From assembly GCA_964106645.2 (NCBI GenBank), contig OZ067044.1: a stretch of DNA of 64,000 bases; one strand, given 5' to 3'. Positions within the stretch are counted from its first letter, which is position 1. Every line of letters begins with the position of its first letter. The notes under the pieces were generated by a model that made no database searches, was not told the origin of the DNA, and saw only the letters and a program-made list of their open reading frames with translations. The stretch comes from Podarcis pityusensis. Lineage: Eukaryota. The translations under genes and the position numbers were made by a program. Shown one piece after another: positions 4,235 to 61,150 of the stretch.

Positions 4235-5479
4235 TAACAACAGGGATTGTTCTTGTTTTTCACCTTTTTATTACAAGAGTGCATTCTCTTCCCTATTAAT
4301 AAAACAGGATGGATAAGGTCAAAAGTAAATAAAAATGGATTAAAGTCAATAGTCAATATAAATGCAAGTCACTTTGCTTCCCTTAGTCCCACTCATCCTG
4401 ACCTTAAAGCAGGCATGCCGACAGATCTTCAGATTTTCCATTCTCTCCTCACAATTTTTTAAGCCCTTCCCTCCTGCTCTTCCTCAGTCTGCTTGAAAAC
4501 TTTGGCTTGTTAAGCTGTTGTCTGGTATTTCTCCAACAGAGGCTCCTCTCAAAACATATTCTTGACAATAGAGCAGTTCACACTGTTCACAAAACTTATT
4601 TCACTGCTTGCCTTTTCTGTGTCTCTCTTTGTAGACTTTGTTCATTGTTACATGGCTAAATACGAGGTACCATTTGGGCCATCTGGGATCTGTCACAGGA
4701 TCCCTATGAGCAGAAGCAACTTGCAGGACAATGTGTCACAGACAGAACCTTCCTGGCCAACTGTCCTGAGCCAGAGCCAGATTTCCACTGCTTCCCTCCT
4801 GCTCCAGGATGCTCTCCAGGAAAGAGTACGCACTCCTTTTTGCAGCTTTGTGCTGGCTGAGCTCCACTCTGCTCTCTCCCTGGCTGCGGTCAGGTGTGAG
4901 GCCTTGATCTGTTTCTGATTAGCAGCCAGCAGCAGAGCTCATTAATTGTCCTGTGATCCTTGCCCTAACTCAGAGCAGCTAACTCCATCCAGCCAAGGCT
5001 GGGGCAGAGGGCAGCCCTCCAGGGACTGGGGGAAAAGGCCACTTCCCCTCCCCCCCATCTCTTCTTCCAGCCATGCATCAGAGAAAGACCCAGCCCCTCC
5101 CCCATACGTTGCAACTGGAGCTGATTAACTTCCTTGGCCTTGAGGAACAAATCATTCTCCTCTAATCTCTCTCTCTCCCTCCTTCAGTAATTGCAGATCA
5201 GCTCCAATCCTTTTCACTAAAGTAAAGGAAGGAATCACTCCGTTTTTTGTCTGCTTCTACAATCTGAAGCTACTGATCTTCCCTTCCTTCCCATAAGCAC
5301 CAGGCTAGTATGATGCGCTGAATTCTTCCCAATGACCACAGAAATGAGTGAATGCAAAGGGTGATTGACTGCACAGGGCTCTTCAAAAAACGTTCCCCAA
5401 AAGCCATGCCGATCAACCCAGGATGTACATTTGTGGTTACTATACTTAGCCACAACCTGCGAATTGACAGTGGATTGGG

Positions 5480-7200
5480 TAGCGGGGACGAAGAAAGGCG
5501 CACCGCGCGCTTCTTGGCTACTTCTTCAGCGACTGGGCTAACTGTTCGGGGGCAAAGGAGGAGCCACTGTCATCCGGGATGAGCCAACTCTGCTGGATGG
5601 GATGCCCCCCCCTCGCCCCAATTAAGAAGGCAGACAGAATCGAGGACCGAAACTGGAACAAAAGCTTTTTTCAGCGGGGGTGGGGCGTTTGGCTCCGGAA
5701 ATGCCCACAATTTGTCTGCATGGAGACACCAGGCAGCTGCACCCGCGGATGGTCACGAGGGGCAGATTGCGGGATGATCCCATCGGGGAAATATGGGGCT
5801 CCCAGCGCACGTGGCGCTTGATCTAATCTGCCGTCCACACAAAGGGGTCCCCCCCCCGCCTTTCCCGGCACAGAGCATCCATTCAGAGATGCTCATCCCC
5901 GCCCGCTTGCCCGAGGGAGGTGCGCGCCTTCTCTCTGTCCCCCTCCCTCCGCGGGCGCTGCAGCCCCCGACTTGCCAGCCAGACGGACAAAGAGCTGCTC
6001 TTCTGTTACCGTTTCGGATCTGGTCTGTGTTGGTCTGTTTAAAAAAAAGAGAGAGAGATTAAACCTTTGATCTGGCTGCGGAATTCCCTTTTTGGGTGGG
6101 ACGGGAAAATGCGCCACATTCTAACGGAACCAGTACCTGAGCGGGGAGAAATTCGGCAGGAAAAGCCCGCCTTGGCACGGAGAGGAAATGCTTCTGCGGA
6201 ATTTCTGCCCCGTCGAGGCGCAGCAGCTGGTTATATGTACTGTATGCATGTCATGACACCCCCCCCCCCCGCCAGCGCCGAGGTGCGAGTTCTCACATCA
6301 GCTTCCCTTGCCCGAACCCCGATATTATTTAATGTTCATAAGCAGATAAAACAAGTCGCCCTTCGGAAATGGCGCATTTATTATAGAACAGCCAAGATCA
6401 CAACGCTGTGCGCTGGCGGGGAGAAAAAGCCGCGGCGATGGCGAAGAGGCGCCTGTTTGGGTCAATTCTTGGGGGGGGGGGAGGAGGGAAGCGGCGTTTC
6501 GCCCCCTCCTTTCCGGGTCGCCTCCTGCTCGGGGGCTCCAGCGGGCAGCGCTCAGCCTGCGCGCCCCTCGAGGCGGCCGACTCCCCGGGAAGACCTCGTC
6601 ACTATGGCAACAGGGGCTTGCAAGAAGAAGAGGAAGAAGAGTGCGCGTGCGTCGGCTTGTCCTCCCTCCTGCCGCCCCCTCTTCCTTCTCCCGGCTGCCC
6701 GGACTTCTCTCGCGCCCGCCCCTCCTCCGCGCACCCAGACACCTCCTTCGGCGCCCAAGGCGCAGACCCCTGGAAGAGGAGCGTCGTATTCCGGGGCCCC
6801 TCAGCCGCCGCCCAGCACCTCTCCTCACGAGGCGGCTGCAAGGGACTCCGGCTTGAGAGCTCTCCAGGGCGACGCGAGATGCCTGGCGGCTTTCCTCTGC
6901 CCCGACCCGGCACCCTGGGGTGCCCTCGCTCCGCACCCAGCGAGCCTTCTGGGGGCTGAGCCTCGAGGAAGCCTGCGGACGGGGGGAGAGGGAGGAATTA
7001 TGCGGGGCGGGGCTTGCCTCCCCCCAATATTTTATTCAAGTTGCCACCTCTGGCTTCTTGGGCTCTTGTGCTCCTCACTTCGCCCCCACCATTAATCTTA
7101 CCTGTTTTCCTTTTGCTTCCTTTGTTGCTGTCGGCAAATGGCATTCTTGGAAGGGGCGAGGGACGGGGTCTTCTCTTTGGCGCCCGCCCCCCCATTATGC
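5480..7200. promoter_or_regulatory. CpG island downstream of Pcdh-gamma (promoter of an unidentified gene, or an enhancer)
   Basis: High CpG density; X-box 6598-6611, ETS/YY1-like CGGAAATGGCGC 6364-6375, NRF1-like GTGCGCGTGCGT 6641-6652, GC boxes ~7003-7013. Confidence 0.75.
6598..6611. promoter_or_regulatory. RFX X-box motif GTCACTATGGCAAC
   Basis: Close match to the 14-bp X-box consensus (GTTGCCATGGCAAC type) inside a CpG island. Confidence 0.65.
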
Positions 7201-32873: not shown

Positions 32874-33142
32874 CCTTAATCCATAGGTTGGTTCATTCAC
32901 TGCATATGGAAAACTGAAGTGTGAGATAACATAGATTCAAACTCACACAACCCTTTTCAAAAAAAATTTTAGCACGATGTATTATAGAAATGGTGGCAGA
33001 ACAGCTGTAGAGAAAGATCAGGCTGCTGCTGCCTCAGCTACGCATCCATATATCCAGTGCATTTCCACAACAGCACAGAACTAAAATCCATAGTTGGAAC
33101 TTTGGAACAGCTTTGCAGAAGATGAGAAAATAAATAACTCAC

Positions 33143-33201
33143 CCACTGGTTCCTGGTCTCTGGGCCTGAGAGAAACGCCAGTCTGTGTTAGGTTGTGCTT
33201 G
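33143..33201 (-). CDS. PCDHG: Pcdh-gamma constant exon 1 (59 bp; [20 protein letters not shown])
   Basis: Acceptor tttctcttgcag|CAAGCA, donor GTGG|gtgagt. Length and peptide match the known gamma constant exon 1. Not in the ORF track. Confidence 0.96.
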
Positions 33202-34128
33202 CTGCAAGAGAAACACAAAGAGAGGTTTAATGCTTCTATTCCTAAAATGAAGCTCAGCTATAAAATACACACACACATGCACACACAAGCAGAGAACACC
33301 ATTATATGTTCCAAAATACTTCTAAAGAAGCGTGATTGGTTAACATGATAAGAAAGTAATCTAAATAATCTTGTAGAAGATAAGACAGTCAGAAACTATC
33401 CATGAATAAATGAAGCATGAAATAAGCTTGAAGGGGCATCATTTAAACCAGAGAACACCAGAACATCAGGAATATTTTTTTTGGGGGGGGGGGGAGAAGA
33501 ACAGAATTAATTGGTACTGAGAGAATACCAACATCTGAAATGCTAATAGAATTTCCTAATTTATAATCTTTACTGAAACAGGTCAGTGTTAGGGCTTTGA
33601 TTTAATGTCTTCTGTTTCCTTTGATCTTTGGAGCTTTGCAATCTTTTTCGCCCACTGAGATTAAAAATTCCATTTCCCACAACAATAATGATTTCTTTGA
33701 AGGCGCAACAGAAGACACTATATCAGAATAGACTGAGCCATGTATTACTTTCCACCCACATTGTTGTATTATTAGAACAATGGACATTTTGTAAATAAAG
33801 GAGTACATAAAATGCCACTATGAGCAGCATGTCTGAATGGCTCTTTGTGATCACAGCTGAAAGACACAGTGTGGTTGATGCATGCTGCAAAACTCCAGAT
33901 ATCCTGTCAGTCTCCTCCATTAATCCTTCAGTAATAATATTCCACACCATTAGAGAGATTGGCACCTGAACCGTTGTTTATGTGTTTTTTTCCTTAAACA
34001 AAATGGACAAACATGTTTTAAGATCAGGATACAAGGGTGTAATCGACATCTTATTCAAGCAACGTCAAAATTAGAATTGATTCAGGTGAATCTGGACTCC
34101 TAGGATCCTGCAAATAAAAAACTATATG

Positions 34129-34212: not shown

Positions 34213-36684
34213 AGACAATAGGAGGATTCCAGCTTTACTGATTATTGATCTGTGAACACTAAAGGATTAAAATATACTACTGGTGTCAGTTAAACAAGTT
34301 CGTAAATCTATTTATGTATGTGTATGTGTAAAATTATCATATATAACAGTATATAGCATGTATAAATATACATATATTTCTCTGCAGACTAAATATGCAG
34401 AAACAAGCCACCTCCTTTGAGTTATTCATTGTGAACACTTACTTCCTCAGTTGCTTCTATAATTTGCAGAGCCAGAGGCTACAATAATCAAACCTTAAAT
34501 CCTAAATTTAAACACCTAAATACAGGCAGTTCTTTAAATATATTTTGAGCATCTTCAGCACACACTGAATTAAAAAAACCCACACACACAACCCGTGGTT
34601 TTCTGAAGTTTAGAAAATGGCACCTGTTTATTTAAGTTTCTAAATGTGGATTTAGACATTCCTAAAATGGTTAAGTTCCTGTCCCCAAGTCTCAAAAAGC
34701 TCAAATTTCAGCCATATTTCTTTACGAGGTGGCAAAAGCTGGAATGTGAAATCTGTGTATGATAAGGATTGCAAAACAGAGTGTCATGTGTTGCAAAATA
34801 CTGCATTCTTTCTGCACATAGTATCTTCATAGCGCCAGCAAAATTTAGAAGCAGGAAAGAAGCAAAATTGAAGTAAGAGCAGTTTGTTAAAATTACTGAT
34901 ATGTAAATTTTGTATTGTTGCTTTTTCTTAAATAAGCTGAGCCTGTCCCTTTCACCAAGGGCTCACTGCTTCCTATCCCTTGTGTTAACCCAATGGGAAA
35001 TTTTCATTTTTAAAAATATATTTTTAAAATTTTTAATTTATATTTTAAAATGTATCAATTACTCACATTATAACACATCCAAATAATTCAGCTAAAAATA
35101 TACTGTCTCATTTGCAGTCACTCTTAGCTCCTGCCACTCTTATGGAAAGAGCTGTGCACTTCTGAAATGCCCATTTACTTCAATGGGACTTGCACAGAAG
35201 AACTTCCCAGTGAATGGTCATAAGATGTTTCCCCTAAGGTGCTACTTAAGTGTAACTGTGATGTCACAGAATCATGTATTTATTAGACGTACTTGTTTTA
35301 AATGCTTGCAGGCTGCTTTTGGGGCGAAGATGCAACATGTCAAAATCAAAACATGCTCAAAATGGCAAAGTAACACCAGCAGCTTCACAGTTTTTCCACA
35401 ATATTACCTTAAGATAGTGATAGATCTGGATTTGCCTGACAGTTTTACAGAACTCTGATAATGGTAGCAGTGAGGTGAGTAGGGAGTACTTTTTAAAATG
35501 AATCCAGCAACCCTCACCTTTTGACCCATATCCTCACCATCATCACCATCACAGTCTCTTTTGCTAAAGGATCCATTAAGCACATCTGTGCAAAACGATG
35601 CAGCTAAAGAGGCCTCAACATATACACCCATGTGGTCCCATTTCAGTCTCTTCCTTTGAACCTCTGCTCAGAACTAACTTCTTCCATAAAGCCTTTGGTT
35701 TAAACCTCTGGCTTTCCAGCTGAGATGAGAGTGGAGTCAAAGTCTGTTCAGATCTGGCTTCTTCCCCAAATGTTTGCTGCACATGTAGAGAAGGTCTGGA
35801 ACGGAGCTCGTTTGTAGCTGCATCTGCTCTCATTCATCCTTCGCTACACTTGCCTCCCCCTTTTCTCTGACTACATTTAGGTCGAGAGCTTCTTGTGGCA
35901 GGGACATGGGTTGTGCTTTTCTTTACTCTGTAAAGTGCTGGGCACACGGGTGGCATAATAATAATTCTACTGAGTTTTTAAAAGCCTAACTGACAAGCAA
36001 CAGTAGCAACCCAAACAGGACTTTGGATCCACCTGACCTTATGTCCAGCATAGGGCTACCTAAACGTCCCATCAGCACATGGGTTTCCTCTTGCACAACA
36101 GGACTCCCCTTGCCTCTTGCCTCCCCCCTCCCCCTCCTGCTGTGACCACCTAACTCTATCTGGAGGTTCCTCAACTCTCTGGAGCAGATTTGGGGAGAGT
36201 TTGTTGAACATGTTGAGAGGAAGAATGGGGGGAGGGAAGGGGGCAGACCCCATTTCACAAGCAGAAATCCTTGCACGGATGGGATGCATGTGTTGGATTA
36301 CCACCCTATATATTTGTTTTATTATACCACCCTTTAATCATATTCCCAGGAGTCCCAGTCAAGAGCAACCACTGCACATGCATTCTCCTCTCACCCCAAT
36401 TTACCATAGAACCTCCTGGGGTGGGGGGAGGCAGCTGGAGAGTGCAGCATGGAAAGAAATGAAAGCCCTACATGCACCTTGTAAAAAGCATAACAGCTGC
36501 AAAATGAAGGAACCCCGGGATGTCACCCTCCACAACACACACACACACACACACATGCATACACACCTCATTTACCTCTTTACACCTAGCAGATGGAAGT
36601 CTATGGTAGATAAATATGGTAGATAAATATGGATTTATGGATTGCAAGCAGAAATGTTTTAAGAATCACTTTAGTGTATCTTAC

Positions 36685-39120
36685 CCCATCAGAGGGACTC
36701 TGCAAAACACTGCCTGCCTGCTCAAAGGCAAGCATGCTTTCTGCTGTAGTGGAATGACTGAAAGGTTTAACAAAAAAGAATTCGCCCTGTTCAGACATTG
36801 GAGAGAGACAAGACTTGTAGTGCTGAGCTCCAGCTCCGCCCACTTCAAGGTATCTGATAAAGCCTTCGGGATGTGGGCGCCCAGTGAAATTTATGGTGGA
36901 TTTCCTGTCTGTCCTCTTACTACAGCAGTGTGACATGAACCAGCTGGGGACACAGAGGCCAGATCTGAAGCACCTGGCCCCCACAATAACCAACATTACA
37001 CAAGAGACCAGAGAGATGGCCACAAGAGAGATGATAAGGTAGAGAGTTAGGCTGGGGGCTCTGGAAGGTGATTTGGGGAGAAGGTCCAAGGACTTGGAAA
37101 AGTCCTGCACAGCATTATCCTCTGAGGAAATCACAAGAACCAGTGAGGCTGAGAGAGACGGCACTCCATTGTCTCTTACTTCTATCACCAACCTGTGGGA
37201 CACCCCAGGCTCCCTCAATGCCCGAACAGCCCGGATCTCTCCTGAGTGGCGTTCCACTTTGAACGGGGTGGCTTCATTGGCATCCTGAAGCAAACTATAT
37301 GACAGCCAAGCATTGTGGCCACTGTCAGCATCCACAGCCACCACTTTGGTCACCAGGAATCCAGGTTCCACCGGGAGCAGAACTGGCTGGTGAAAGGCAG
37401 AGCCCTTGGAGACTTGCGGGTGCACAATCACCGGGGCGTTGTCGTTCTGGTCCACAACAAACAAGTGAAGAGTGGCTGTGCTGCTCAGGGGTGGGAAACC
37501 CGAATCCTTCACCTCCACTGCAACTTGAAAGACTTTCTCTTGCTCATAGTCAAGCATCCTGGATGTGTAAATGCTGCCATTCTCTTGGTTGATGTGGAAA
37601 TAGGTCGAAATGGGTAAGCCATGATTTCCATTGTCCACAATGGAGTAAGACAGCTTGGAGTTGACACCTGCATCCGGATCTGAGGCTGACAGAGAAAAAA
37701 CTAGAGTCCCAGGGGAAGTATTTTCCTCCACATGAGCAGTGTATGAAGGGATGGAGAAAGTGGGTGCATTGTCATTAACATCTGAGACTTGAATAAATAT
37801 GTTTTTGTGGGTGGATTTTTGAGGCATTCCAGAATCTGTTGCTTTAATTGTGATATTATATCCAGCAGCCTTCTCTCGGTCCAGGGGCCCATTGGTCACC
37901 AGTGAATAATGTCCCTTAAAGGAAGACACCAGTTTGAACGGGATGTGCCTGGTAATCTCCAAGTGGACTTGCCCATTTTCCTCAGAGTCGTTGTCCTTTG
38001 CTTGGATCAGGGCAATGACTGTTCCTGTGGGTGCATCTTCTTGCACTGGGCTAGAGAGGGAAGTCAGCATAATCTCTGGGCGGTTGTCATTGACATCAAC
38101 AAGTTCCACTCTGATGTTGCAGTGACCCTCCATGGCAGGGGACCCCTTGTCTTTTATGTAGATAGCTATCTCGTAAGCATTCGCTTCTTCGTAGTCCAGC
38201 AGAGCTTTGGTCCTGATCTCCCCTGTCTGGGGATCCAAGCTAAACAAGTCAAGGAGCTTCAGAGGTGCGCTATTGCTGGCTTTGAGGAAATACTCCATCT
38301 CTCCATTAGGACCTTCATCTAAGTCCGTAACATTGAGCTTAGTTACAACAGTCCCCACCTGGACGTTTTCCTCCAAATAAACTTTGGACACTGGCGGGTC
38401 ACACACAGGGGGGTTGTCATTTGCATCCAGGACGTGGACTGTCACCTGGGCAGTCCCAGACTGAACAGGATTCCCACTATCCAGAGCTGTCAGGACTAAG
38501 TGATGGACAGCGGCTTTTTCCCTGTCTAGAAGCTTCTCCAGCACAATTTCGGGCATTTTGACCCCGTCCCCCCTGACGTTAATGCTCAAGGCAAAATGTT
38601 CGCTTGGGCTAAGCTCATAGGTGGCAATGGAGTTGGAGCCCGTGTCCGGGTCTTCGGCGGCTTCCAGGCGCAAGCGGGTGCCCGGGTTGGCCACCTCGGT
38701 GATTTCCAAGGAAACCCTGTCCTTCGGGAACTTGGGGGCGTTGTCGTTCACGTCCAGGATCTCCACCTCCACCCGGTGTAGCTGCAGGGGGTTCTCCAGC
38801 ACCAGCTGGAGAGGGAAGGAGCACGTGGGGCTGGAGCTGCACAGAGCTTCGCGGTCCAGCCTCTCGTGGACCAGCAACATGCCGTCGGCGAGGTTGACAT
38901 GGAAGTAGTGGCGCATCCCGTCGCTGACCAGCTGCAGGCGGCGAGCGGACAAGCTCCGCACGTCCACGCCTAGGTCCTTCGCCACGTTCCCCACGGAAGA
39001 GCCTGGGTCCCGGTCCTCTGGGATGGAGTAGCGAATCTGCGCGGGGATGAGCCCTGGCAGGGACAAGACGGCAGCCACCAGCGCCAGCAGCTGCCACGAC
39101 CAGCTCTGCCCGCCGCCCAT
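36685..39120 (-). CDS. Last additional C-type protocadherin gamma variable exon before the constant region (812 codons)
   Basis: Signal peptide ...IPAQIRYSIPED, six ECs, PAMEGHCNIRVEL in EC3, TM LTLYLIISL, cytoplasmic IRYLEV...YKSCLSP.SE..EF.F. ATG in GGCATGG context at 39120. Donor GGG|GTAAGA after 36685, phase 0. Confidence 0.93.
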
Positions 39121-39500
39121 GCCTGGCTCCTTTGCGCGCAAGGATGGCCGTCTCCAGCGGCTGCCTCTGCTCCAGGTATCCAGCCCGGGGGTGGCCGCTG
39201 CTGCCTCCGGACCCCGCCGCAGTCCGGTGCCCCCCGCCCCGCCCCCCAGGTCTGCTCCTGGCGGCTCCGGGGTGACCTGAGAGGTGCTGTGCAGCGGAAA
39301 GGCGCGGGCTGCAGCTGGAGAGGCGGGAGGGGGGAGCGGGGGGATTTTAAAGCGCTCGGATCAGCAGCAGCTCATTGGCAAAAGGAGCAGCAGAGAAAAG
39401 GGGCTGTGAAATGGATACAGACAAGCGGCAATTCCCTCCTCGGCGGCGGCGGCGGCGGCAGCAGCAGCAGAGAAGCCCCTTCCCCGAAACGCACACACAC
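38620..39500. promoter_or_regulatory. CpG island over the promoter and EC1 of the last variable exon
   Basis: Dense CpG, (GGC)n tract at ~39442-39458, CCAAT box at 39370-39379. Confidence 0.8.
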
Positions 39501-46004: not shown

Positions 46005-47533
46005 TTCAGAAAAAAGTCCCCTTCCAGAAGGAGTCTTTGTGATATCCCAGGGATAAGGAGGCTCCAGGACCTGGATGAATGCTGTTTTTCAAATCCCTCG
46101 GTATTTCCTTCCAAATGAGTTAAAGTAGCTTTTGAGCTTGCCTAGCTGCAGCAACAGAATGTTAGTCAGAGAGTTGAGGGGGTGGATTGGGGGAGGGAAG
46201 CTGAATTACAGCCATAGCGACGGAGGAGGAAAGTCAAGGCAGAAAGAGCTGATCCCCCCTCCCCCCAAAATCTGGATCAGCACCTGACTAGATGACAGCT
46301 CCATCCACTCTCCACCAGTGACAAGTCCACCTACACTCTTAAAGCTGCTGCAGCACATGAAGTTGGGAGACCAGGACTGATCACCCCCATACCTCAACCC
46401 TAAATGTAACCAAGAGGCTGGTTTGCCACTGGTTTTGGCAGCTAAGTTTAGCAGCTCAGATTCTTGTTCTCAAGGAAACAGCACGTCCGGGAAGCATGAA
46501 CGGTACAAATCCTCATTGTTCACATTAGCTAGATTCATTCCATCTCATCTGAACAAAAGACAAACTCTCAGCTGTAGGGGATACAGAATCATAGTCTCTC
46601 TGGCGAACAACTGGTCCGATTTTTCACTTGCAGTGAAAAAGGTATTTGTTACAGTCGAAAAGAGGAAAGATAGGGAGAAACTCTCACAGAAAGTGCTTTA
46701 GCATTTTGCAACGCAGCTTCAATAAATGCATTTAAAACTCTTAGTCATTACCAAGGCAAAACAGACCCTTTCAGAATGTTCATTTTCAAATGCAGACATG
46801 GGAACCTCCACCACACAGTGAAGAATGCACAATCTTCAAAATTGCTTAAGGCCTCCCAGCTCTATTCATTGGCCTTTCCAAAATTAGAACACCACAATCA
46901 ATGCAGCAGTATTTCTAAGTAGAACCATTGTAACCCAAAGACCATGGTGTGGCTTTGAATGTCAGGGACCCACATACCAAGTAATTTTTAAGCTGTGGTG
47001 TTAAAGCACTTTCCAATAACGAGACACCCAAGTACAGATTCACAGAACTGTGATGGACTCAGTGAGTGGACCATTTTTCTTAAGATGGGGTGCCTCATTC
47101 TTGATGCACTCCCGACTTATGACCCTTAGCACTTTTTCTTTCCCCTCTTTCCACCAAGCTTTCAAAAACATCAGAAAAACAAATATTTGACAATCTCCCC
47201 TGGAAAATCATTTAACTGCTGGATTTATTTTTCGGTGAGAAACTTTTTGCTGCTTGTTAACCTAAATCTAAGTACCAGTAGTTTAAAAGCATTACTTCTT
47301 GCCAAATATCCACAGGGTGAACAACTGCTAATCTTCCCAAGATTCTTCTAAAATAGCCTATCTCCTTGAAGAATCTCAAATCCAACAAAATGCTTTTTAA
47401 TTTACAAACTGACCACCTTAACACAAAGGCTGCCTGACATTGCCATTGCATCTGTGACCTCTATCCCTGGAGATTGTTACAGAATCACAGGGTGCTACAC
47501 GACATAGTTATAGAACAGTATTTCATGCCTCAC

Positions 47534-49984
47534 CTCGTTTGGCTCTCGGGAAAGGCTGCAGGCCAGAAGTGTGCCTGTGCTGTTGATATCCTGCTGAGTG
47601 ACTGGTGTAGCTATCCTGAAATTCCTCCCTTCTGAAAAGTGGGTCTGGCCAGGCCTTAGGAGGGTAAAAGGAGAAACAACATCTCCCCCAATGAAGGCTG
47701 TAGGGAATTCCATTTTTTCCTCCTGGCTCAAGCGTACTGAGAACGTGTCAAAGTGTCCTCCCACAGGAATAGAGTTCCTACCCTTCAGGTCGCTGGTCCA
47801 ACCCACATCTGAGTGTCTTCCTTTCAATCTTTTAAGACACTTCATAGCTAAAAACACAAAGGCCAGAGCAGAAAGTCCTGAGATTGTGATTAGAGCAATA
47901 ATGAGTTGCAAGGTCAGGTGAGACAGCCCTTCTTGTTCCATGCTGGACTCTCTGAGGTCTGCTGTGCCCAACTCATGCTCATGCTCTAGATTAAGAATCA
48001 GAGTGGCTGTGGCAGACAGAGGTGGCTTCCCATTGTCCAAGATCTCAACAACCAACTCTTGGGAAGGGGCGTCTTGTTCCAGGAGGGCTCGGACGGTTCG
48101 GATCTCTCCTGTGAACGCCGAGACTTGGAAAAGGCTTGGGTCTGTGGCTTGCTGCAGCTTATAAGAAACCCATGCATTCTGCCCAGAGTCTGCATCCACA
48201 GCTGTGACTTTGGTTACCAGGTAACCTCCTTGTGCAGAAAAAGGGACTGGCTGCTGGGCTAGGACCCCCTTCTTGGTTACAGGGTATACAACGAGAGGAG
48301 CATTATCATTCTGGTCTATGATGAAGATGGAGACAGTCACATTGGCACAGAGTGGAGGAGAACCATTATCCTTAGCTTGAATCTGGAAAACCAGTTGCTG
48401 GGTTTGCTCATAGTCAAATGAGCAGCCACTGTAGATAGTACCGTTCTCCATAACATAGACATAGGAGGAAATGGGCATTCCATTTATGATATGCTCCACT
48501 AACGAATAAGACAGGTGTGAGTTCTGCCCCAGATCAGGGTCAAAGGCAGATATAGAAATGATTGGCAGCCCCAGAGCATTGTTCTCAGTTACGAGGGTCT
48601 CATATGCAGGCTGTGAGAAGTGGGGTGGGTTATCGTTCAGGTCAGATATATTTATAAGGAAGTTTCTTTGACTGGAGAGAGGTGGAGAACCAGAATCCGT
48701 AGCTGTGATCATAACTTTGTACTGTGAGATTTCCTCCCGATCTAGGGGGCCACTGGTGATCAAAGAGTAGTGGTTCTTGAAGGAAGGTACAATCTGGAAG
48801 GGGATATCTGCAGGGAGATGAAGCTGTACTTCTCCATTTTCCCCAGAATCTGCATCACTGACTCTGAGGAGCCCTGCTGTGGTACCTGGGGGAGCATCTT
48901 CTGGTATGGTGGTGGTGAGGGAAGTGAACCTAATGATAGGCTCATTGTCATTCACATCCACTACCTCCACTAAGATGTTGCAGTGTGCATCCATGGAAGG
49001 TGACCCTTGGTCTTTGGCCCTCACATCAATTTCATACAATGTGTCATCTTCATAATCCACACTTCCCAGGACTCTTATCTCCCCAGTCTCCTCATTAAGG
49101 CTGAACATTTTCCGGATTTTCTGTGGAGTGTGGCTGCTGAAGGAGTAGGAAACTTTCCCATTTGCCCCCTCATCATTGTCTGTAGCTTGTAAATGTATCA
49201 CAAGGGTCCCCACTGGGGCATTTTCTAGTAGGCTAACTTTGTACACTGATTGGTTAAAGACAGGTGGATTGTCATTGGCGTCTATTACTGACACGAGAAT
49301 CTTTGCTGTCCCGGATTTAGCAGGAACTCCTCCATCCAGGGCTGTAAGCACCAGGGGGTAGCGCTGCTGCTGTTCTCTATCCAATGCCTTCTCTAACACC
49401 AGCTCAGGTTTGCTGCCGCCTTTATGTGACTTAACACTGAGGCTGAATTGTCCACGTGGACTCAGCTGGTAGGTGCTGACTGAATTCATGCCAATGTCCA
49501 AATCTTCAGCACTTTCCAGGGGGAAGCGGGCCCCTGGCATTGCAGACTCTGCTATCTCCAAATGGGTTAGACTGGTAAGAAAAACCGGGTCGTTGTCATT
49601 CACATCCAAGAGCTCAACTTCCACACGATGGGAGGCTGTTGGGTTTGCAAGTAGGAGCTCCAGATAGAGCAGGCAGTGTAAGCTGGGCCCACAAAGCTGC
49701 TCTCGGTCAAGCCGTTCTTTCACGACCAAGAGACCATTTGGCACCTTGGCTTCGAAGTACTTTTCAGCAGAGCCAGCCATGATCTGCAGCTGTCGGGAGA
49801 CCACCCGGGCAGCATCTAGACCCAAGTCTTTAGCCACATCCCCAACAAAGGCCCCAGGAGCTAACTCCTCAGGAATCGAATAATGGAGCTGGGTCATCTC
49901 TCCAGCGCTCTGGAGAGAGACAGAAACCAAAAGCAAAGCTCTTACTTGCCATAGCAGGAGTAGTCTTTCTTCCAGAGACAGCAT
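47534..49984 (-). CDS. C-type protocadherin gamma variable exon, gamma-C4-like by position and several residues but divergent (817 codons)
   Basis: Intact EC1-6 and TM. Strings resembling mammalian C4: AWVSY, FDYEQTQ.L.F..QA.D, DLRESS...EG.S.LTL, NISD.NDNPP.F. Lies between C3 and C5. ATG at 49984 (MLSLEERLLLLWQVRALLLV). Donor GAG|GTGAGG after 47534, phase 0. Confidence 0.9.
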
Positions 49985-50699
49985 AATGTCGCCAAAATTT
50001 CCTCTTCCTTTGCTGGACCTCTGTCCTCTCTGATTCCAGCACAGCCAAGGAAACAACACAGAATCCCGGGTTAGGTCGCGCAAGGGATGAGAAAGCGGCG
50101 CACCATCTGCATCTTTTCTCTGTTTTTCTTCCACAGAAAACAGCGGCGGTGCCTAGTCCGTATCGGAATCAAGAGGGGAGGAGCTTTGTTGTCCATCAAA
50201 GCAGATACAGGGCTCCTGGAATCAAGGAAGCGCCTGGCTGTTTGCAATGGACCACCCATCCTCCCCCTCCCCAGCTCCAGCAATGGTGTGGGGGAGGTCT
50301 TAAAGCGCCAGTGCAAATGTTGAAGAAGAGCTGGGAGCCCATTCGCCAGCTGTCAGTGACTGGATTTCCCAAGATAATTATATGAACAATAAATCCTATG
50401 TCATTACAAGCTTTTGAATTCATTAATGAATGTCACAAGCATTTAAATTCAATAATGAACACTCTTTGTTTGGAATGGTTGGGGTTATAAGCTAAACTAG
50501 CAAACTGCATATTTTGCAGATTTTTTAAAAAACAGAATGCAACAAACACCAGTGGCTGCACAATTAAGTGATATACTGCCATTTGCTGGATATAAGATCA
50601 CGTTAAAAGACCCATTGATTGTCTGCCTGAATTTCCTTTAAATGAATGGCATTCAATAACCGATGCAGGAGAGCTCTTCAAAGCTCATTCCCACTATGG

Positions 50700-52950
50700 C
50701 CTTTGTTCTCCAAATGGAGTATACTAAGAGTCTCTCCATATACCCTTTCCTAAATTTCAGGAGTTTTGCAGCCAGTGCACAAAACAGAATAAACCATGAC
50801 ATCACAAAGGAAATTTTTAAGCCTCTGGAGTCAAAGGTTAGGAGGAGCAAGGTTAAAAAGAGTTTTATGAGCAAGAACCTGGTCCCTGATGTTCCCAACA
50901 AACAGCTTCCATAGTGGAGACAACTAAGATGTTAGGGAAGGGGTCAGGTCAAGGAGATTCATGGACTTCCTGGAAAAGATGAAAGAAATCTATGAATAGA
51001 AGTATTTTTTCTCCCCTAAAGGTAGACAATGCCTTCTGAATGTTGGCATGGTAGACTTCAGTGAAGAGGTAGATGAGGCACACTGCTGTTGAAAAAGTGG
51101 TGTCCTCTGTCTTATGTGCTTGATTAGAAGCACCTGGATTTGCTCCTAGTGGCATCATGTGTGGATGAGAAGCTGGGCACCTCCCGTGTGTGAGATTTCA
51201 CAATAGAAATGAAACAGACAGAATGTATTTACGGTGATGGTCCTTCTCCAGGAGTACTGTGCAGATAATATAGGGCAATGACCACAGGTTGTTCGTATTG
51301 CATTTGTTATTCTGTTAGCTAGATTGGTCTTCACTGTCCAGAGGAGTATTTGTGACTAAAACCTGGTTTTGAAACACGGTCCATGGCTTTAAATGCAAGC
51401 ATCTGGGAATACTGGCAATCACTGCTGCTCCACTGCCTCTGGAGTGAGCTGCTTGCTATGTGCAGAGACATGCTGTCTGGCACGGACAAAGTTTGTTTTG
51501 ACCAAGGTACAATCTTTTGGGTATTTGGGGACATAAAAAATGTGCACCACCATATGTTCCATGGCAAAGACGTCCACCTCATTTTAACATTAAACTTATA
51601 GCTTCTATTTTATAGGCAAGCCTCCTTTTCACCACAGCCGTGACTTCCCAATAGTCACATAATGCTGCACTGGGTGGAGTCCTCCTATATACGGAATTGC
51701 CATACTAAGTAAGGTGTTGCTCCAATATAGAGCCTTCAGGACCAAGCAATGCTCAACTTCCTTAATTCCCAGTCAATGTTTTTCAAAGAAGCAAGTTCAG
51801 ATCTCTTCACATCAACAGACAAGAAAGTCTTAACAAGTAAGTGATGACGGAACTGCTGCTCGTTCTACTAACCAAGGAATGTTAATTTCTCTGACTCTAA
51901 ATATCTCTCTGTGTCACAGGCCCTGGAGAGGGTAGGAATCGTCAACACCTGCATTTCCCACTTCTGCCTGATACATTTCCATGGATCTTTTTACATCCAT
52001 TTTGACTCCATGAAGGAGCTTGACTCACATGTACACAGGGACTCACAGTTTACAGGTTCCTTTCAAAGCAGTAAAAATCTATTTCCACAGTTATCATCTC
52101 ACTAATCAACTATTATATAGCAGTCGTTTGGGGATGCAATTTCCCGTTCTTTCCTATGATTTCTATGTAACCTAAACTCACCCTTCTAGTCCACTTGGAC
52201 TAGTAATGGTCAGGGATTGGCACAGTGCCTGGGCAGAGAGCACAGAACAATTAGCAGCATCCACAAAACTGCTGCAGGGTGGAAGCACATTGAGATTCTG
52301 GACTCAGGCTACATCAAGAGCAATTTTCTTCAGCTCAAGAGTTTGTATTTGTATATTACAATACACAAAATCACGATATCAAATACATTCCTTGACTTAC
52401 TGATTCTGCCTTTTCTAATGCCTGAGGATACACATTAAAAAAACTTAAGGATACTATTTTTTATAATGAATGTTCTTATCTTGATAATACCAATGTCTTT
52501 ATACACTCTTGCTTCTCTTGAATTCACCTGCACATAACATTCAGCTTTGCAATCCTATTTATTTTCAGAATCCATTTAGTTGCAAATAGCACACATACTG
52601 TACAGATATTTCTAACTAGTTATATACAGTCTTGGTTCACAGAGCTACGAACGCTGCATAGCAGGCTAAGTGGCTTTGAAAGATGCAAAGCCACTTGGCT
52701 TGGTTTAACTAACACACATGAATTATACTACAGGACGCTGTGCTAAACTTCACAGGAAACAGTATTTGATGAGAAGCATTCAAATCAGTTCCTAATGCAC
52801 ACTTGTGCCATTTAACTTAATGGAATGGAAAAGAAATTCTGTATTTTAAACCCTTGTCTTTAATGAAATCACAATAAATATTTGGTGCAAAGGAAAACAT
52901 TTCAACAATAGAAACGGGAGACCTTGTAATTAGGATTTGAGAAGAGTGGG
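50700..52950 (-). pseudogene. Heavily decayed C-type protocadherin variable exon
   Basis: Colinear frameshifted remnants in minus-strand translation: KDKGL (~52850), LEIS (~52610), KDIGIIKIRTF (~52490), FNVYPQALEKA (~52420), ELKKIA...VQNLNV (~52310), GP..RE (~51915), SL..KTFLSVDVK (~51825), DVFA (~51570), KPGF/LVT (~51360), LLEKD (~51250), EVPSFSST (~51170), DLT.SL.ILVVST (~50935). Order and spacing match an EC1-TM exon; boundaries approximate. Confidence 0.65.
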
Positions 52951-55900
52951 GAGACTGATATCTCACTTCAAAATCTGAAATGTGATTGAGTTTGATTGCT
53001 TTAGACTTTTTGGACAGTCAATGACTATTTTCTAGGTTCAAGATTGTAGACAAGCAAGCAAGAGGGAAATTTTAAATGTTGGGGGTCAACATACAGTAAG
53101 TTTCATTACATTCTCCCACCCCCCTACACTAAACTCGTTTGTGAAAGGCACCATAAGATCTTGAGTGGGGTCTCTGGGCAGGGATTGTGCATGTTTATTG
53201 CTGTCAAATCTCATCCAGTGGCAGATGGCTAGACAGCATGATGTTAGCCAGCTCTTTGCACTCTTTGTCTTCCATTATCTTTACAGAAAAACAAATATGG
53301 TAACTTTCTTGCATTGCTCTAGATTAGATGTATTTAATCATAAAGTTTCTGATCTTGAATTCTCCTGTGTTGCTTTGGCTGCATATATGCTCATCTTAAT
53401 TTTCAAAGTGAGATTTCTTCTTTCCAATCTCAATGTCCTATAATTCAGGGATACTTATTACAAACTAGAAGACCAGTGTGTTTGGCAGTAAACCCCACAG
53501 CATATGAAGCTGTCGCTTGCATTTATTTCAGTGCACAAAGCGCAGCAGGTCCTGGCCCCTTGCAACATATTTTCAAGCACATATGATTTTAATAAGTACA
53601 GCCTCCTCAACTGCAAGTGTAATGGACACACTAAATGTTCACATTGTTTCAGTAATACGTGAAGGAGCCCTGATTATATTTGGTGAGAGTCTGCCCTGGT
53701 TTTGCATATTTTAGAGCCAGATGGCCTACTAATGAAAAGCCTCTGTGCATCATTCTAACTTTTGTTAAAAACACTAAAGAAACTAATGGTTCTGCCTGTA
53801 CAGATTAAGTGTGGGATCTGGTGCAGCTTTAAGAGTACATCAGCTTAGGGTCATCATATTGTGCTGGAATTGCTAATGCCTATTGACAGGACACACACGG
53901 GCACACAAACACACCTCTCTTCCGCTGTCTCTTTTGCCCGCCCTATTTTTCTGATCATAGTCATTTTCTTAACAATCTTCCAGACTATGTAATTTTGGGT
54001 AGGAAAACGAAGCTAAAACAATTTCCAAGGATCTCAGGGTTCACATGTCAACCATTTCAAGCAAAGCAACATGTATGGCAGTTAAGAAAGCCTAATTATG
54101 AATTGATAACAGCAATGCAACCCTTTTGGCATCAGAATAGTAATAATAAACAATAATAATTTAAATCTCAACAACAAATTAAAAGTACAGATGAAATCAC
54201 TAATCAGTTATCGATGAATTAACATCATCATCATCATCATTATTACATTTATAAGGCTGCCCTATAGCAGTTTTCTGGGTGGCTCACAAACCAAACCAAG
54301 CAGAATACAGCATATTAAAAACCTATGATGAATTAATTAAAAGTTGATGCACAATTTACAACTCAAGGTATAAAATAAAAGCAAGCTACATACAAAATAT
54401 CAATTACTGTTGTGAATGTGTATATATATTTCCCACACAGCCGAAAGGTTAGGTACCACATTGCTCTAAAACATGTTCGGATATCAGATGCCAAATACTA
54501 AATGCCAAATTAACCAGGTACAAAGACTCAAAACCAGTTCACTGAAATGATGGCCCTGAAAGCTATTCACAAACTATCAGGGGTGAGAACTGGCCTGGAG
54601 CCAGACGCTTTCTGGCAACCTCTCCTTTACTCTTGCAATCTCTGGGCTTCCTGGTCCTTCTTCCAGCACCCTCTCCACATAAAGCCGCAGTTTATCACTG
54701 TACCCTAAAACAACTTCCTGCCTATAGCATCTAATTGTGTAGCAGAATGCACCCTGAGCATGTATCTACACTGCAGATTCAAACTGGTGCAGCAATCATT
54801 CCCAAGGAATTATAGGAATTGTGCTTCTGGCTCAGTTCTCAATGAGGTTGTACCCCTGACTCTGGGCTGTACCACTTCAGACTGCAGGTGGGGACTCAAG
54901 ATGGCTGTATGCTCCTCCATGCCAGCCACCCCACGGTTAGGATCCATCTTCCTGACATCTAGCTTTGACAGAGCTCTGAATTCTTTGTACGCAGGAACAT
55001 TCAAAGATGTGGGTTTCATCTGCAATCTGAAATGGTACAGCCTAGAAACAGATTAACCATCTTGGTGAGAACTGGGCCTCTGTGAGGAAATCTTACAAAC
55101 ATGACACACAACGTGCTCTCTTCAGAGTGAAAATGTTCATGAATATTTCAAAGGAAACTAGCATGTACATACAATCCCAGCAATTAACATATTCACTGCC
55201 AGCCTTCTGCTGTTACACAATAACAAGATAAAATGAGTGTCACACGAGTGCTACCTAATGTTATCAGTGATCAGAATATGAGAGGAGCCTGGGAAGGAAG
55301 GGAATTTGATGCCTCCTGGGCAGTTTGCCTATGCCTGGTATTTTAGGGGGGAAGACTGTTGGACAGAATGGGGATGGGGTGCAAGACAACATATAAGTCA
55401 AGCTGAAAGTAGCCTGCCACTTGTGATTCCCAAAAGAAAGCTGAAGCCTGAAACTTTAGGTAAAACCTTGAGACTCAGAAACCCTAAAGCACAATAGCTT
55501 TGTGCAGCTGGTGGAAGAGTCAGAAAAAGCTCACCTATGTAGGTGTTGACCGGTGTGCTTTGTAGGCATTGTGAGAAAGAACCTGGCTATTGTTGTTATT
55601 ACTCCTCCTTCTCCTCTCTACACAGAAGCTTTTCTGGATTGCAGGCAAAATCTCTAGTTAATATTCACTTTCATACAATAACATATTGCATTATCTTTTC
55701 ACTTATTGACTTTTGATATGAACTCTATGATGGGGCTGCCTATGTTTTCTTGGACATTCAACAGGGAACACATTATCTTAGCATCGTAGCATCTCTACTA
55801 TCTCCCACCTGATCAGGGACAACATGGGGGGGGGGGAGCTGAGCCCCTCCAATTAAGCAGGGGACTGGGCCCCCTCAATTTTATGCAGCCTGCAAGCCAT

Positions 55901-57366: not shown

Positions 57367-57964
57367 ATGTTTGGCTACATAGAGAATAGGTTCAATTCCA
57401 CCATACACATAAGGAAAAGGAATAAGTCTTACATTTCCACCCCATCATAGATGAATATCAAACAGACATACATCAGAGGCTAGGCCCCCCAAGGAAATGT
57501 TGAAGGTGATCTCCCTTTAGCGTCTTGAAAAAGCACCCAAGTCAAAAGGCCTCCCAATACATATCCAACCCATTATTTACACAGCATTACTGTTTCCTTG
57601 CGTATGATTTTTTTGTAAAACATAAACTTACTGGGAGCTATCATTCTTCAGAGGCAATGACTATGCAACCCAACAACAGCTGACCACATTGATCTGACCC
57701 AGAGCAGAAAGAACAAACCACCCAACTCCATGTAATGTAGGAAGGAAACAACACATGCACAGGAGTTAAACAGGCGGGGCTCTTAATCATGCTATTAAAT
57801 GACACAGCACTAGATGGAGACAGAAAACAGGAAAACGAATGTGTTCTACGGGAACTACCCTGTTTCCGGGTAGAAAGACATTGAGTGGTCTGCCTTTAAG
57901 TCAACTTAAGCTCAGAGCTGGGATTTCCCAACTTTGTTGGAGAAGGACAACAAGCATACATTAC

Positions 57965-60409
57965 CTCAGAGGACACCAGAAGCCTCTTATTTGTGCTTAT
58001 TAGCTGGTTATATATTGCAGGGTCACATCTTGTGATAGTGCTCTGGCGGCTCCCCATAGGGCTGGGAGCAAAGGGCATTTTGTACAGAAGTTCACTCTGG
58101 CGAGAGTCCGTGGTGAGGACCTGCTGGTAGAAGTTTGGAGGAGTAAATCCACTCCGCACAGTGTCTATGTGGTTGAAAGGCCCCGGGGTTCTATAAAGGG
58201 AGCTTCTGGAGGCTTTGAATATATCCTTGGATTGCCTCCACTTGTAAAATTTATAAATCCCCACCCCAACCACGGTGACAAAGAAGGCCACTGAGATCAA
58301 GATGACAGCAATGATTAAATAGAAAGTCAAGTGCTTCTTTGTTTGGGGTGTAGTGGACACAGCAGTCAAGTCTGTCAGTGTCTCCCTAGATGTCTCTGCT
58401 ACATCTACAGCAAGGGTCACTGTGGAGGACAAGGCAGGCTCCCCATTGTCTTTTATTAAGATGAGCAATGTTTGCTTGCGAGAATCTTCCTCTTGCAGAG
58501 AACGAGCTGTGCTTATCTCCCCAGAATGCAGCCCCACAGTGAACAGCCCTGGGTCAGTGACCTGAAGGAAGGAATACGAGAGCCAGGCATTGTAACCAGA
58601 ATCTGCATCCCAGGCCACAATTTTTGTGACCATGTAACCAGGGCTGACTGTGGGTGAGATGACTTCTGAGAGCGAAGAACTGTTGTTTGAGTTCGGGTAT
58701 AAGAGCCTGGGTGCATTGTCATTCTGATCTGTGACAAAAACATTGACAGTGATGTTAGTGGCGAGAGGCGGGAGGCCAGCATCACGAACCTGGACCACTA
58801 GCCTGAACTCCATGGTGCCCTCATGGTCCAAGGGGACTAGGACATATATGCTGCCATTTTCCCGGTTAATAGAAAAATACCTGCCCGCCAAGTCTCCCGA
58901 GGACATGGGACTATCCAGGATGGAGTAGGAAAGGTGGGAATTCCGGTTCAGATCCGGGTCAGAGGCACTGATGTTAAAGATCAGGGTCCCTGGAAGGTTG
59001 TTTTCCTCCACATACACATCATAGGAGGATTGTGGAAATTTAGGAGGGTTGTCATTTACATCAGATACTTTAACCAGTATTTGCTTTTCTGCCATGAGTG
59101 AGGGTGTGCCTGCATCCTGAGCTGTGATGGTGATGTTGTACTCAGAGACAAGTTCCCTGTCCAAGGGTCCTTTGGTCTGTAAGGTATAATAGTTTTTAAG
59201 GGAAGAGCTGAGGGCAAAAGGGATCCCAGAAGGTATAAAGCAATTTACTAGGCCATTATCACCAGAGTCCTGATCCGTGACACTCAGCAACGCAATCACA
59301 GTCCCTGGAGCTGCGTCTTCTGGTATTGGGCTGTATACCGACGTCACTGTTATTTCTGGGGTGTTGTCGTTCACATCCACAATCTCTACCAGCACTTTGC
59401 AATGAGCGACACCAGGATTTGAACCCTTATCTTTTGCCTGGATATAAATCTCATAAAATTTGGCTTCTTCAAAATCCAGCAACCCCTTCAGCCTCAGTTC
59501 TCCAGTGGCAGAGTCTAGGGCAAAGAGCTGTCGGACTCTGGCAGGGGTGTGACTGCTGAAAGAGTACACAATCTCCCCATTGGGGCCTTCATCCAGGTCG
59601 AAAGCTCTGGTTTGGACAACCAGGGTGTTCAAGGGTGTGTCTTCTTTCACGCTGGCTCTGTAGATGGACTGGTTGAAGACAGGGGCGTTGTCATTTGCAT
59701 CCAGGACGTCAACCAGCACCTGCAAGCTGGCCGATCGGGGTGGGGTCCCTCCATCCATCGCCGTGAGAACCAGCTGCACTTCCCGCTGCTGCTCCCGGTC
59801 CAGCTCTTTCTCCAGCACCAGCTCCGCATACTTCGTCCCGTCGCCTCGCGTCTGCACGTCCAGCACGAAGTGTGGGTTGGCGCTGAGCTGGTAGGTCTGC
59901 AGAGAGTTGCTTCCCACGTCGGGGTCCTGCGCGCTCTCCAAGGGGAAACGCGCTCCGGGGGTCACCGACTCGCTGATCTCCAGCTTCATTTGCTTGCTCT
60001 GGAAAGCCGGGTCGTTGTCGTTGACGTCCTGGATCTCCACGGTCACGCCGTACAGCACCAGCGGGCTCTCGGCCACCACCTCCAGGCTCAGCGCGCACGG
60101 CGAGAGGGCCCCGCAAAGTTCCTCGCGGTCGATGCGCTCGCTCACCAGCAACTTCCCGCTGCCCAGGTCCACCTCGAAGTACTTTCGTCCGCCGCCCGAC
60201 ACTACGCGGAGGTTCCTCGCGGGCAGCTGGGCGAGATCCAGTCCCAGGTCGCCCACCACGTTGCCCACCGAAGAGCCCCTGGGCATCTCCTCGGGGATGG
60301 CGTAGCGCGTGGCGGCGAGCGCCCGCTCCGAGACGCCCAGCCACAGCCAGAAGCCCACGACGGGCAGCCATCGCGCTCTCGGCCGGCTCCTTCCCGCGGC
60401 GCCTCTCAT
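57965..60409 (-). CDS. PCDHGC3: Protocadherin gamma-C3 variable exon (signal peptide, EC1-EC6, TM, variable cytoplasmic domain; 815 codons, ~949 aa with constant exons)
   Basis: Six cadherin repeats with DRE/DxNDNxP motifs. C3-diagnostic strings: KYAELVLE, EIYIQAKDKG.NP..AHCKVLVE, TSVYSP, SSLKNY, YKW.QS.D....SSLYRTPGP, LTTDSR, SRQ.T...CDP. First ATG at 60409 (ORF track starts at an upstream TTG). Donor GAG|GTAATG after 57965, phase 0; 2445 nt is divisible by 3. Confidence 0.95.
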
Positions 60410-61150
60410 CTCCCGGCCTCGCAAAGTTTCTTTCTTTTTGCGGGAGCGGCGGGGAGGTCCCTCTAAAAGTTCTCAGCCGTCCCTTCCATGCGGCCGCGAC
60501 CCTGCCCGGTCCAGGCTCGCCTCGCGCGGACTTTGGGGGTCGGGCATTGCTCGGCGGCGCGGCGCTCCGGCGACGGGACTGCGCTCCGTCTGTTGCTGGC
60601 GCTCAACTCGCGGCGGCGGCGGCGGCGGCGTCCCACTTCGCGCTGCTTCGCCGCCAGCATCGCCGGGTCAACAGCGGCGCGCAGAGTCGCGACCATTAAC
60701 TGCAGGAGAGGCCGCTCCCGCTCCGCCTCCCCGGCTCGCCGCCGGGACTCCGAGGCACGAGGCGCACGGCTCCATCCAAGCTGGGCCGGCGGGGCCCGGT
60801 GACTTCTTTTTTGGGGGGTGGGGCGGGGGTGTTCCTCGGTGAAAGGCTTGTGGAGGCTGCCCCCTAGGCTGCCCAGCCCTCCCCGCTCTGCCGCCGCGAG
60901 AAGGAGCGAAGGGAAGCGCGGACCGAGGAGGCAGCAAGGGCTCATTGTTCTCGCTGGGGAGCGTGGAGGAAGGGCTGGACCCCGGACGCTTCCCAGGGAT
61001 CGGGAGAGAGATGCCTGCCTGCCTCCGGTGCCTCCGCCTCTGGCTCCCTCGCTTACGCTCTCCCGGCGTGGCGGCTCTGTGGGGCAGCCCAGTGCTCCCC
61101 ATGCACGGCACTGCTCAGGGAGAACCCACAAGCCCCCCAAGGCGGTGTAA
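59700..61150. promoter_or_regulatory. CpG island over the gamma-C3 promoter and EC1-EC2
   Basis: Very dense CpG/GC content that drops sharply below ~59700. Confidence 0.85.
60665..60704 (-). promoter_or_regulatory. Conserved sequence element (CSE, CGCT-box CTCF site) of the gamma-C3 promoter
   Basis: Minus strand TGCAGTTAATGGTCGCGACTCTGCGCGCCGCTGTTGACCC: upstream TGCAG module, CGCT core and CGCTGTTGACC tail typical of Pcdh CSEs, ~265 bp upstream of the ATG. Confidence 0.75.

Follow-up and report, generated by a model that had tools for sequence, protein, structure and literature searches.

A decayed C-type protocadherin exon, very probably a lost gamma-C4, in the gamma cluster of the lizard Podarcis pityusensis

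What became of the protocadherin gamma-C4 in reptiles is the question raised by this locus. This brain adhesion gene, on which the survival of neurons depends in mice and people, is described as essential in mice (PMC6957209), where it is the single indispensable gamma-protocadherin, and as a recessive disease gene in people (PMC8553613). That no ortholog was recognized in reptiles was noted in 2009 and could mean a mammalian origin, fast divergence or loss: the text of Jiang et al. 2009 (PMC2764143) reports five anole gamma-C genes, none orthologous to human gamma-C4 (printed there in one place as 'Hs gamma c2' where C4 was evidently intended), together with an orphan coelacanth gene, gamma21, and infers differential loss from a larger ancestral set. 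We analyzed 64,000 nucleotides of Podarcis pityusensis (GCA_964106645.2, contig OZ067044.1), hereafter the window, whose minus strand carries the 3' end of the protocadherin gamma cluster with five intact variable exons (E1 to E5) and three constant exons:

57896..60472, minus strand: E1, intact exon of gamma-C3 and upstream neighbour of the interval in question; open reading frame, grouping with horse and cormorant C3 (SH-aLRT 100)
47495..50152, minus strand: E2, intact exon and downstream neighbour; open reading frame, grouping with a turtle protein and a coelacanth unit (99/98), apart from mammalian C4
43488..46088, minus strand: E3, intact exon of gamma-C5; open reading frame, in the tree with macaque, bird and turtle C5
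39923..42514, minus strand: E4, intact exon, of the anole gamma-c6 type as judged from order; open reading frame with turtle and axolotl orthologs
36601..39360, minus strand: E5, intact exon, of the anole gamma-c7 type as judged from order; open reading frame with a songbird ortholog
33142..33204, minus strand: matched part of gamma constant exon 1 (tblastn with the constant region of P0006)
23383-23297 and 13963-13709, minus strand: matches to gamma constant exons 2 and 3 (tblastn, same constant region)

In the trees, none of the intact exons of the window is a C4 ortholog, and mammalian C4 forms a separate lineage on a long stem. E2, E4 and E5 have orthologs in turtle, bird, axolotl or coelacanth, with no mammalian one among the tree rows. 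A preliminary description of this DNA had called E2 a C4-like gene, a designation that the trees overturn. Judged from its sequence, E2 is not the C4 ortholog: its relatives, labelled 'gamma-C4-like' or 'gamma-C5-like' in databases, form a separate lineage common to turtles and coelacanth, and the label 'gamma-C4-like' on this neighbouring lizard gene is misleading. Identity between the E2 product and a protein of Podarcis raffonei is 98%, and no bird or mammalian ortholog appeared among the 120 matches listed. GC-rich islands lie at 5000-7000 (0.56-0.62), beyond the last constant exon, and at 60000-61000 (0.70), at the start of gamma-C3; a 147-bp tandem duplication occupies 3576-3878 (2.1 copies, 93% matches).

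Detection and anatomy of the decayed exon

Between gamma-C3 and E2, the preliminary description had placed an inactivated C-type variable exon. We examined this interval with a pair-HMM built for this analysis with its own parameters, which models every protein column as codons drawn at lizard usage and then decaying neutrally at the nucleotide level, and adds up all frameshifted alignments; its final version uses local base composition. On the minus strand of 53500-50300 it gave 57.8 bits against mink gamma-C4 and 63.1 bits against wallaby gamma-C4, scores reached by none of 500 dinucleotide shuffles of the DNA (maximum 13.9 bits) and none of 200 shuffled proteins (maximum 14.8 bits). Two profiles free of C4 recovered the same colinear stretch: one of 39 sequences scored 57.5 bits (300 shuffles, maximum 15.5), and one made from the five window exons alone scored 48.0 bits (300 shuffles, maximum 12.4). 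Interval 52300-51000 alone gave 50-55 bits with C4. Interval 53500-52300 remained at shuffle level (5.5-9.5 bits with 12 proteins; shuffled-protein maximum 7.8), and 50160-51000 alone gave no pair-HMM signal.

Chance resemblance or a compositional artefact would fit several results of the conventional searches. Among the matches listed, tblastn (three matrices) and nhmmer with the five exons returned no significant match in the interval, and Viterbi frameshift alignment of the five-exon profile stayed at shuffle level (33.8, 38.8 and 57.2 against maxima of 35.4, 38.8 and 55.6; 40 shuffles each). An initial HMM, which assumed a fixed AT-rich background, was discarded since a GC-rich island reached 50-64 bits with it on both strands; the 5' motifs of the preliminary description are themselves chance. 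Against this stand the two C4-free profiles and the controls after correction for local composition, which do not exceed 18.1 bits (the best of 96 other non-exon tile-strands in the window), with 6.6 bits on the plus strand and 7.4 bits for the reversed protein, and we regard chance or artefact as extremely improbable. Read from the sequence, the minus strand at about 52,100-50,980 is a dead C-type protocadherin variable exon, with weak tails to about 52,300 and 50,700. The exon proposed earlier is borne out by the pair-HMM with C4 and with C4-free profiles alike, and a colinear frameshifted alignment does exceed shuffled controls, but only when alignments are summed.

Viterbi scans with single proteins, 125 in one and 119 in the other, gave noisy results. 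In the latter, a read-through model joining horse C3 and C4 ranked second, and remnants of EC1-EC2 and EC4 stood out clearly in its alignment; the second unit of this model is nearly identical to the mouse gamma-C4 of PDB 7JGZ, a structure of EC1-4. The pair-HMM detected no second fossil in 57890-52300, 47490-46100 or 43480-42520 (best 16.2 bits; shuffled-protein maximum 14.4). Two further candidates were rejected: 27-33 bits at 36600-33000 most likely reflect constant exon 1, the queries extending into the constant region, and a tile near 29033-28793 owes its 18 bits to low-complexity similarity with the transmembrane segment and tail. ESM Atlas returned generic protocadherin clusters only.

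The fossil is divided as follows:

50980..52100, minus strand: core, second half of EC1 through EC5; match coverage per 100 nt 0.73-0.98 (wallaby C4) and 0.80-0.97 (five-exon profile)
52100..52330, minus strand: possible remnant of signal peptide and first half of EC1, weak; coverage 0.30-0.37 (five-exon profile) and 0.02-0.03 (C4)
51915..52071, minus strand: remnant of EC1 (second half), the best preserved and most C4-like; posteriors mostly 0.8-0.99 centrally
51690..51915, minus strand: EC2 remnant; high posterior at 51800-51715
51480..51690, minus strand: shortened EC3 remnant; moderate posterior, no signal as a lone block
51230..51480, minus strand: EC4 remnant, containing KPGF/LVT; LVT in EC4 at posterior 0.83-0.93
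50980..51230, minus strand: EC5 remnant, containing EVPSFSST; aligned in pair-HMM runs
50700..50980, minus strand: probable EC6 scrap and transmembrane remnant, weak; transmembrane posterior 0.4-0.6 (C4-free profile)

Between 52100 and about 51000 match coverage is high; it declines to about 50700 and is zero above 52400, and the strongest remnants lie at 52071-51716. EC1 to EC5 follow in order in one exon remnant, EC6 is almost lost, and a net of about 70 codons is missing between the end of EC2 and EC4; about 1.6 kb is left of the roughly 2.4 kb expected for such an exon. The alignment to wallaby C4 at posterior >=0.5 comprises 224 codons, of which 81 are identical, with 4 stops and 12 frame changes. 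As the preliminary description had observed, there is no long open reading frame: the longest stop-free run in the three frames of 52100-50980 is 92 codons, and an intact reading frame is absent, which makes the fossil a pseudogene. Signal-peptide and transmembrane/cytoplasmic segments have low posteriors and give no signal as separate blocks; the transmembrane segment may survive as a hydrophobic open stretch at 50814-50755. The fossil lies within the tandem array, on the strand of the intact exons and upstream of the three gamma constant exons.

The peptides on which the exon was originally recognized do occur in the minus-strand translation (KDKGL 52861-52847, KDIGIIKIRTF 52500-52468, FNVYPQALEKA 52439-52407, KPGF 51369, LVT 51359, EVPSFSST 51183-51160, DLTPSL 50950 and ILVVST 50930), but they had been put in the wrong register, the assignment having posterior 0.000 for five of the six motifs tested, under the five-exon profile and C4 alike. 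The motifs KDKGL, KDIG and ALEKA (52407..52861) are situated upstream of the fossil and have no aligned counterpart (match posterior 0.000). KPGF/LVT had been assigned to EC6 and belongs to EC4, and EVPSFSST falls in EC5 instead of its claimed position; ILVVST keeps its place at the end of EC6 under the five-exon profile (0.57) but not under C4 (0.003). Because the motif assignments behind it fail, the agreement of a 1.7-kb span with the 1.83 kb of intact exons is a coincidence. The exon starts near 52300, short of the 52950 first proposed, and the examples quoted omit its strongest remnants.

Identity of the lost gene

Of 140 single-unit protocadherins, a panel in which fish and C5 sequences are numerous, the four C4 proteins of full length ranked 1-4 on the fossil at 57.7-63.1 bits; the next protein reached 37.5 bits, and the rest had a median of 18.3. 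Nine further marsupial C4s, which are not independent, gave 59.9-64.7 bits. On the C4-free alignment, C4 was first of 45 rows at posterior cut-offs of 0.5, 0.7 and 0.9, leading the next row by 8, 17 and 12 bits (wallaby) and by 4, 16 and 11 bits (mink). At 42 C4-diagnostic columns, the fossil agrees with C4 at 8, with the non-C4 majority at 8 and with neither at 26; for seven other families the count was 0-4. Block by block, C4 ranked 1-4 of 140 on EC1 (31-34 bits; best other 21.8) and 1, 2, 3 and 5 of 140 on EC4 (margin 2 bits), but only 29-45 of 140 on EC2, where E5 was best, and 7-14 on EC5, where the coelacanth protein P0393 was best (19.1 bits). It is EC1, with 12 bits, and EC4, with 2 bits, that produce the preference for C4, which neither EC2 nor EC5 shares.

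To gauge the size of this preference, we simulated the decay of real lizard exons and scored the products with the exon's own family left out. The C4 margin ranged from -46 to +5 bits in 80 runs, and in 400 runs with non-C4 fossils it did not exceed 15.9 bits, against 25.6 observed. True mammalian orthologs led by at least 25.6 bits in 41 of 160 simulations, and some wrong family did so in 4 of 400. In a protein tree of 32 rows, from which 14 near-redundant rows had been dropped, the fossil was sister to C4 with support of 50/67. Maximum-likelihood placement put it best on the C4 stem among 59 branches; 32 of the 59 were not rejected, and the tip branches of all five lizard exons were. Both placements are to be read with the fossil being a long branch of odd composition beside the long C4 stem.

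Position agrees with these scores. The slot between gamma-C3 (E1) and gamma-C5 (E3) is that of C4, which directly follows C3 in horse (P0171). Coelacanth P0516 is a run of three units. In the tree the second is placed with E2 (99/98) and the third with C5 (100/100). The first unit of P0516 (residues 1-740) occupies the fossil's slot and groups with mammalian C4 at 49/5 (16 rows dropped); like the fossil, it stands directly before the E2 ortholog, and by path it is the row nearest to mammalian C4, but unlike the fossil it is intact. It is 51% identical to mink C4 and scores 23.6 bits against the fossil. Taken together, these data make it very probable that the fossil is a dead gamma-C4 variable exon, an ortholog of PCDHGC4, in the ancestral slot directly after gamma-C3. 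Of the two readings offered originally, C4 ortholog or unrecognized paralog, the former is favoured.

The paralog reading supposes a real fossil of a separate ancient C-type gene, hence an ancestral array of seven members and a C4 deletion that left nothing behind; an example would be the lineage to which the coelacanth gene of this slot belongs, provided that gene is not C4. Deep tree placements that are not rejected, the preference of EC2 and EC5 for other proteins and the near star-like radiation of C-type paralogs are all in keeping with it, as are coelacanth gamma21 and human gamma-C4 being without orthologs in the text of Jiang et al. (PMC2764143). The coelacanth unit itself speaks against such a paralog, scoring 23.6 bits where mammalian C4s score 58-65 (its model lacks most of EC4) and joining mammalian C4 in the best tree, at 49/5; moreover, none of the 400 non-C4 simulations, which contained no close sister of C4, produced a C4 margin of at least 20 bits. 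We therefore consider a separate paralog unlikely. Far less likely still is a copy of one of the five intact exons nearby that arose in the lizard lineage and then decayed. Exons of the cluster are often duplicated in tandem and lost to decay (there are 14 pseudogenes in anole), and E5 is the best non-C4 protein (37.5 bits) as well as the best on EC2, but all five lizard tips are rejected (AU p 9e-8 to 0.039), the flanking E1 and E2 reach only 8.4 and 12.7 bits, and simulated decays at d = 0.45 retain 110-273 bits against their own parent (40 runs).

C4 and C-type exons in other vertebrates

The horse C4 unit was compared with proteins of <963 residues (8000 scored, 120 of 7446 matches listed). 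Among the matches listed, the full-length ones, at 88-99%, were mammalian proteins or unnamed near-copies; next came two bovid chimeras and then turtle C5 at 52%. Of 487 proteins compared, 8 reached 53% over 100 residues, all of them C4 or mammalian chimeras, and every C4 cluster member listed (15 of 25 and 15 of 59) was mammalian. Among the proteins searched, intact C4 turned up in mammals only. No monotreme was among the matches listed in this search, which was not exhaustive and had longer fused models outside its size range. Two bird read-through models (P0131 and P0132) run directly from C3 into C5 and contain no intervening C4 or E2 unit; the middle part of the canary model P0091, considered as a bird C4, proved to be bird C5.

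Mammalian PCDHGC4/Pcdhgc4 shares with the fossil the slot after gamma-C3 and the orientation, and is the best family overall and on EC1 and EC4; it is intact, whereas the fossil is dead, with the stops, frame changes and large deletions given above. Unitary pseudogenes are a class of relics of ancient gene loss. The fossil resembles them in being syntenic and disabled, with the intact ortholog absent within the window, and departs from typical members in being very old and under BLAST detection. The anole array, gamma-c3 to gamma-c7, has five intact gamma C-type exons, as in Podarcis, but the text describing it names no relic between c3 and c4; half of the 14 anole pseudogenes, whose positions that paper (PMC2764143) gives only in its Fig. 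1, differ by single indels and hence are much younger than the Podarcis fossil. From its order, the first coelacanth unit is probably Lm-gamma21, and its weak grouping with mammalian C4 hints that human gamma-C4 and coelacanth gamma21, the two orphans of the 2009 paper, may be orthologs.

Pseudo-exons of protocadherin clusters and a larger ancestral C-type set were known before; what is added here is physical evidence. We found no report of a reptile C4 relic in the open-access literature searched or in the text of the anole paper, and a term search of two recent gamma-C4 papers found no evolutionary passage.

Age of the loss and proposed history

The decay likelihood has a flat peak at 0.45-0.5 substitutions per site. 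At decay levels of 0.35, 0.45 and 0.55 (80 runs each), 6%, 50% and 12% of simulated lizard C3/C5 fossils matched the observed score against mammalian orthologs. If squamates evolve at 1.75-1.78 substitutions per thousand sites per Myr (text of PMC7116210), or Podarcis at 1.98e-9 per year (text of PMC8760935), 0.35-0.55 substitutions per site would place the loss roughly 180-310 Myr ago, an estimate that depends on the chosen indel settings and assumes neutrality. This range spans the tuatara-squamate split, at about 250 Ma, and extends to the amniote root, at about 312 Ma (dates as given in PMC7116210); a single loss on the sauropsid stem and a later loss in lepidosaurs are both compatible with it.

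The likely history is one of reciprocal loss: the amniote ancestor would have had six gamma C-type exons, namely C3, C4, E2-type, C5, E4-type and E5-type. Mammals would have retained C3, C4 and C5 and dropped the E2, E4 and E5 types, and the lizard lineage would have retained the other five and dropped C4. The proposal of at least six ancestral members is consistent with this, yet the text of Jiang et al. 2009 (PMC2764143) already implied it. After inactivation about 0.45 substitutions per site ago, C4 would have drifted and shortened from about 2.4 kb to about 1.6 kb. Given the cluster design described in PMC7811963, the relic would be non-coding and lie within the intron of upstream gamma transcripts; by the same architecture, transcripts of gamma-C3 and of the exons upstream should skip it and splice to constant exon 1.

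A relic in the syntenic position speaks for C4 having been present in a common ancestor of amniotes and later lost, and it supplies a rough date. Mice cannot do without C4, and in people it is a disease gene; in lizards its role would therefore either fall to a different isoform, or the need for it would be a mammalian acquisition. Two questions become testable: which isoform supports neuronal survival in reptiles and birds, and whether C4 turned essential in mammals alone. It is possible, though we advance the idea tentatively, that C4 underwent a single loss close to the root of all reptiles and birds, some 250-310 million years ago, with the lizard relic as its physical trace; human C4 and coelacanth gamma21 would then be one ancient lineage, and neuronal survival in sauropsids would rely on another isoform, perhaps one of the three C-types lost in mammals. 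A relic of roughly 250 Myr would still be readable in a squamate genome, though invisible to BLAST.

Contigs from two related organisms cover 30 of 30 bins of this region. Frame-breaking indels of +4, +1 and -2 and a cluster at 51661-51671 fall within the fossil, and none of those listed falls in the coding part of E2; the counts are small. At 51661-51671, one relative has about 16 extra bases, near the inferred large EC2/EC3 deletion, and may have kept a larger share of the former exon. An interspersed repeat upstream of the fossil, at 54861-54899, is marked by numerous loose contig ends and a depth >90. In run X13, at least 13 sites differ in 969 nt of the fossil (50700-51668; 1.3%), at least 19 in 1952 nt of E2 coding sequence (1.0%) and at least 61 of 2186 in the upstream contig (51910-54105; 2.8%); run X7 gives 1.6% on both sides. 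The low divergence of the fossil in run X13 is a weak and inconsistent hint of constraint. Two RNA runs contributed 8 and 11 reads over 7.6 kb.
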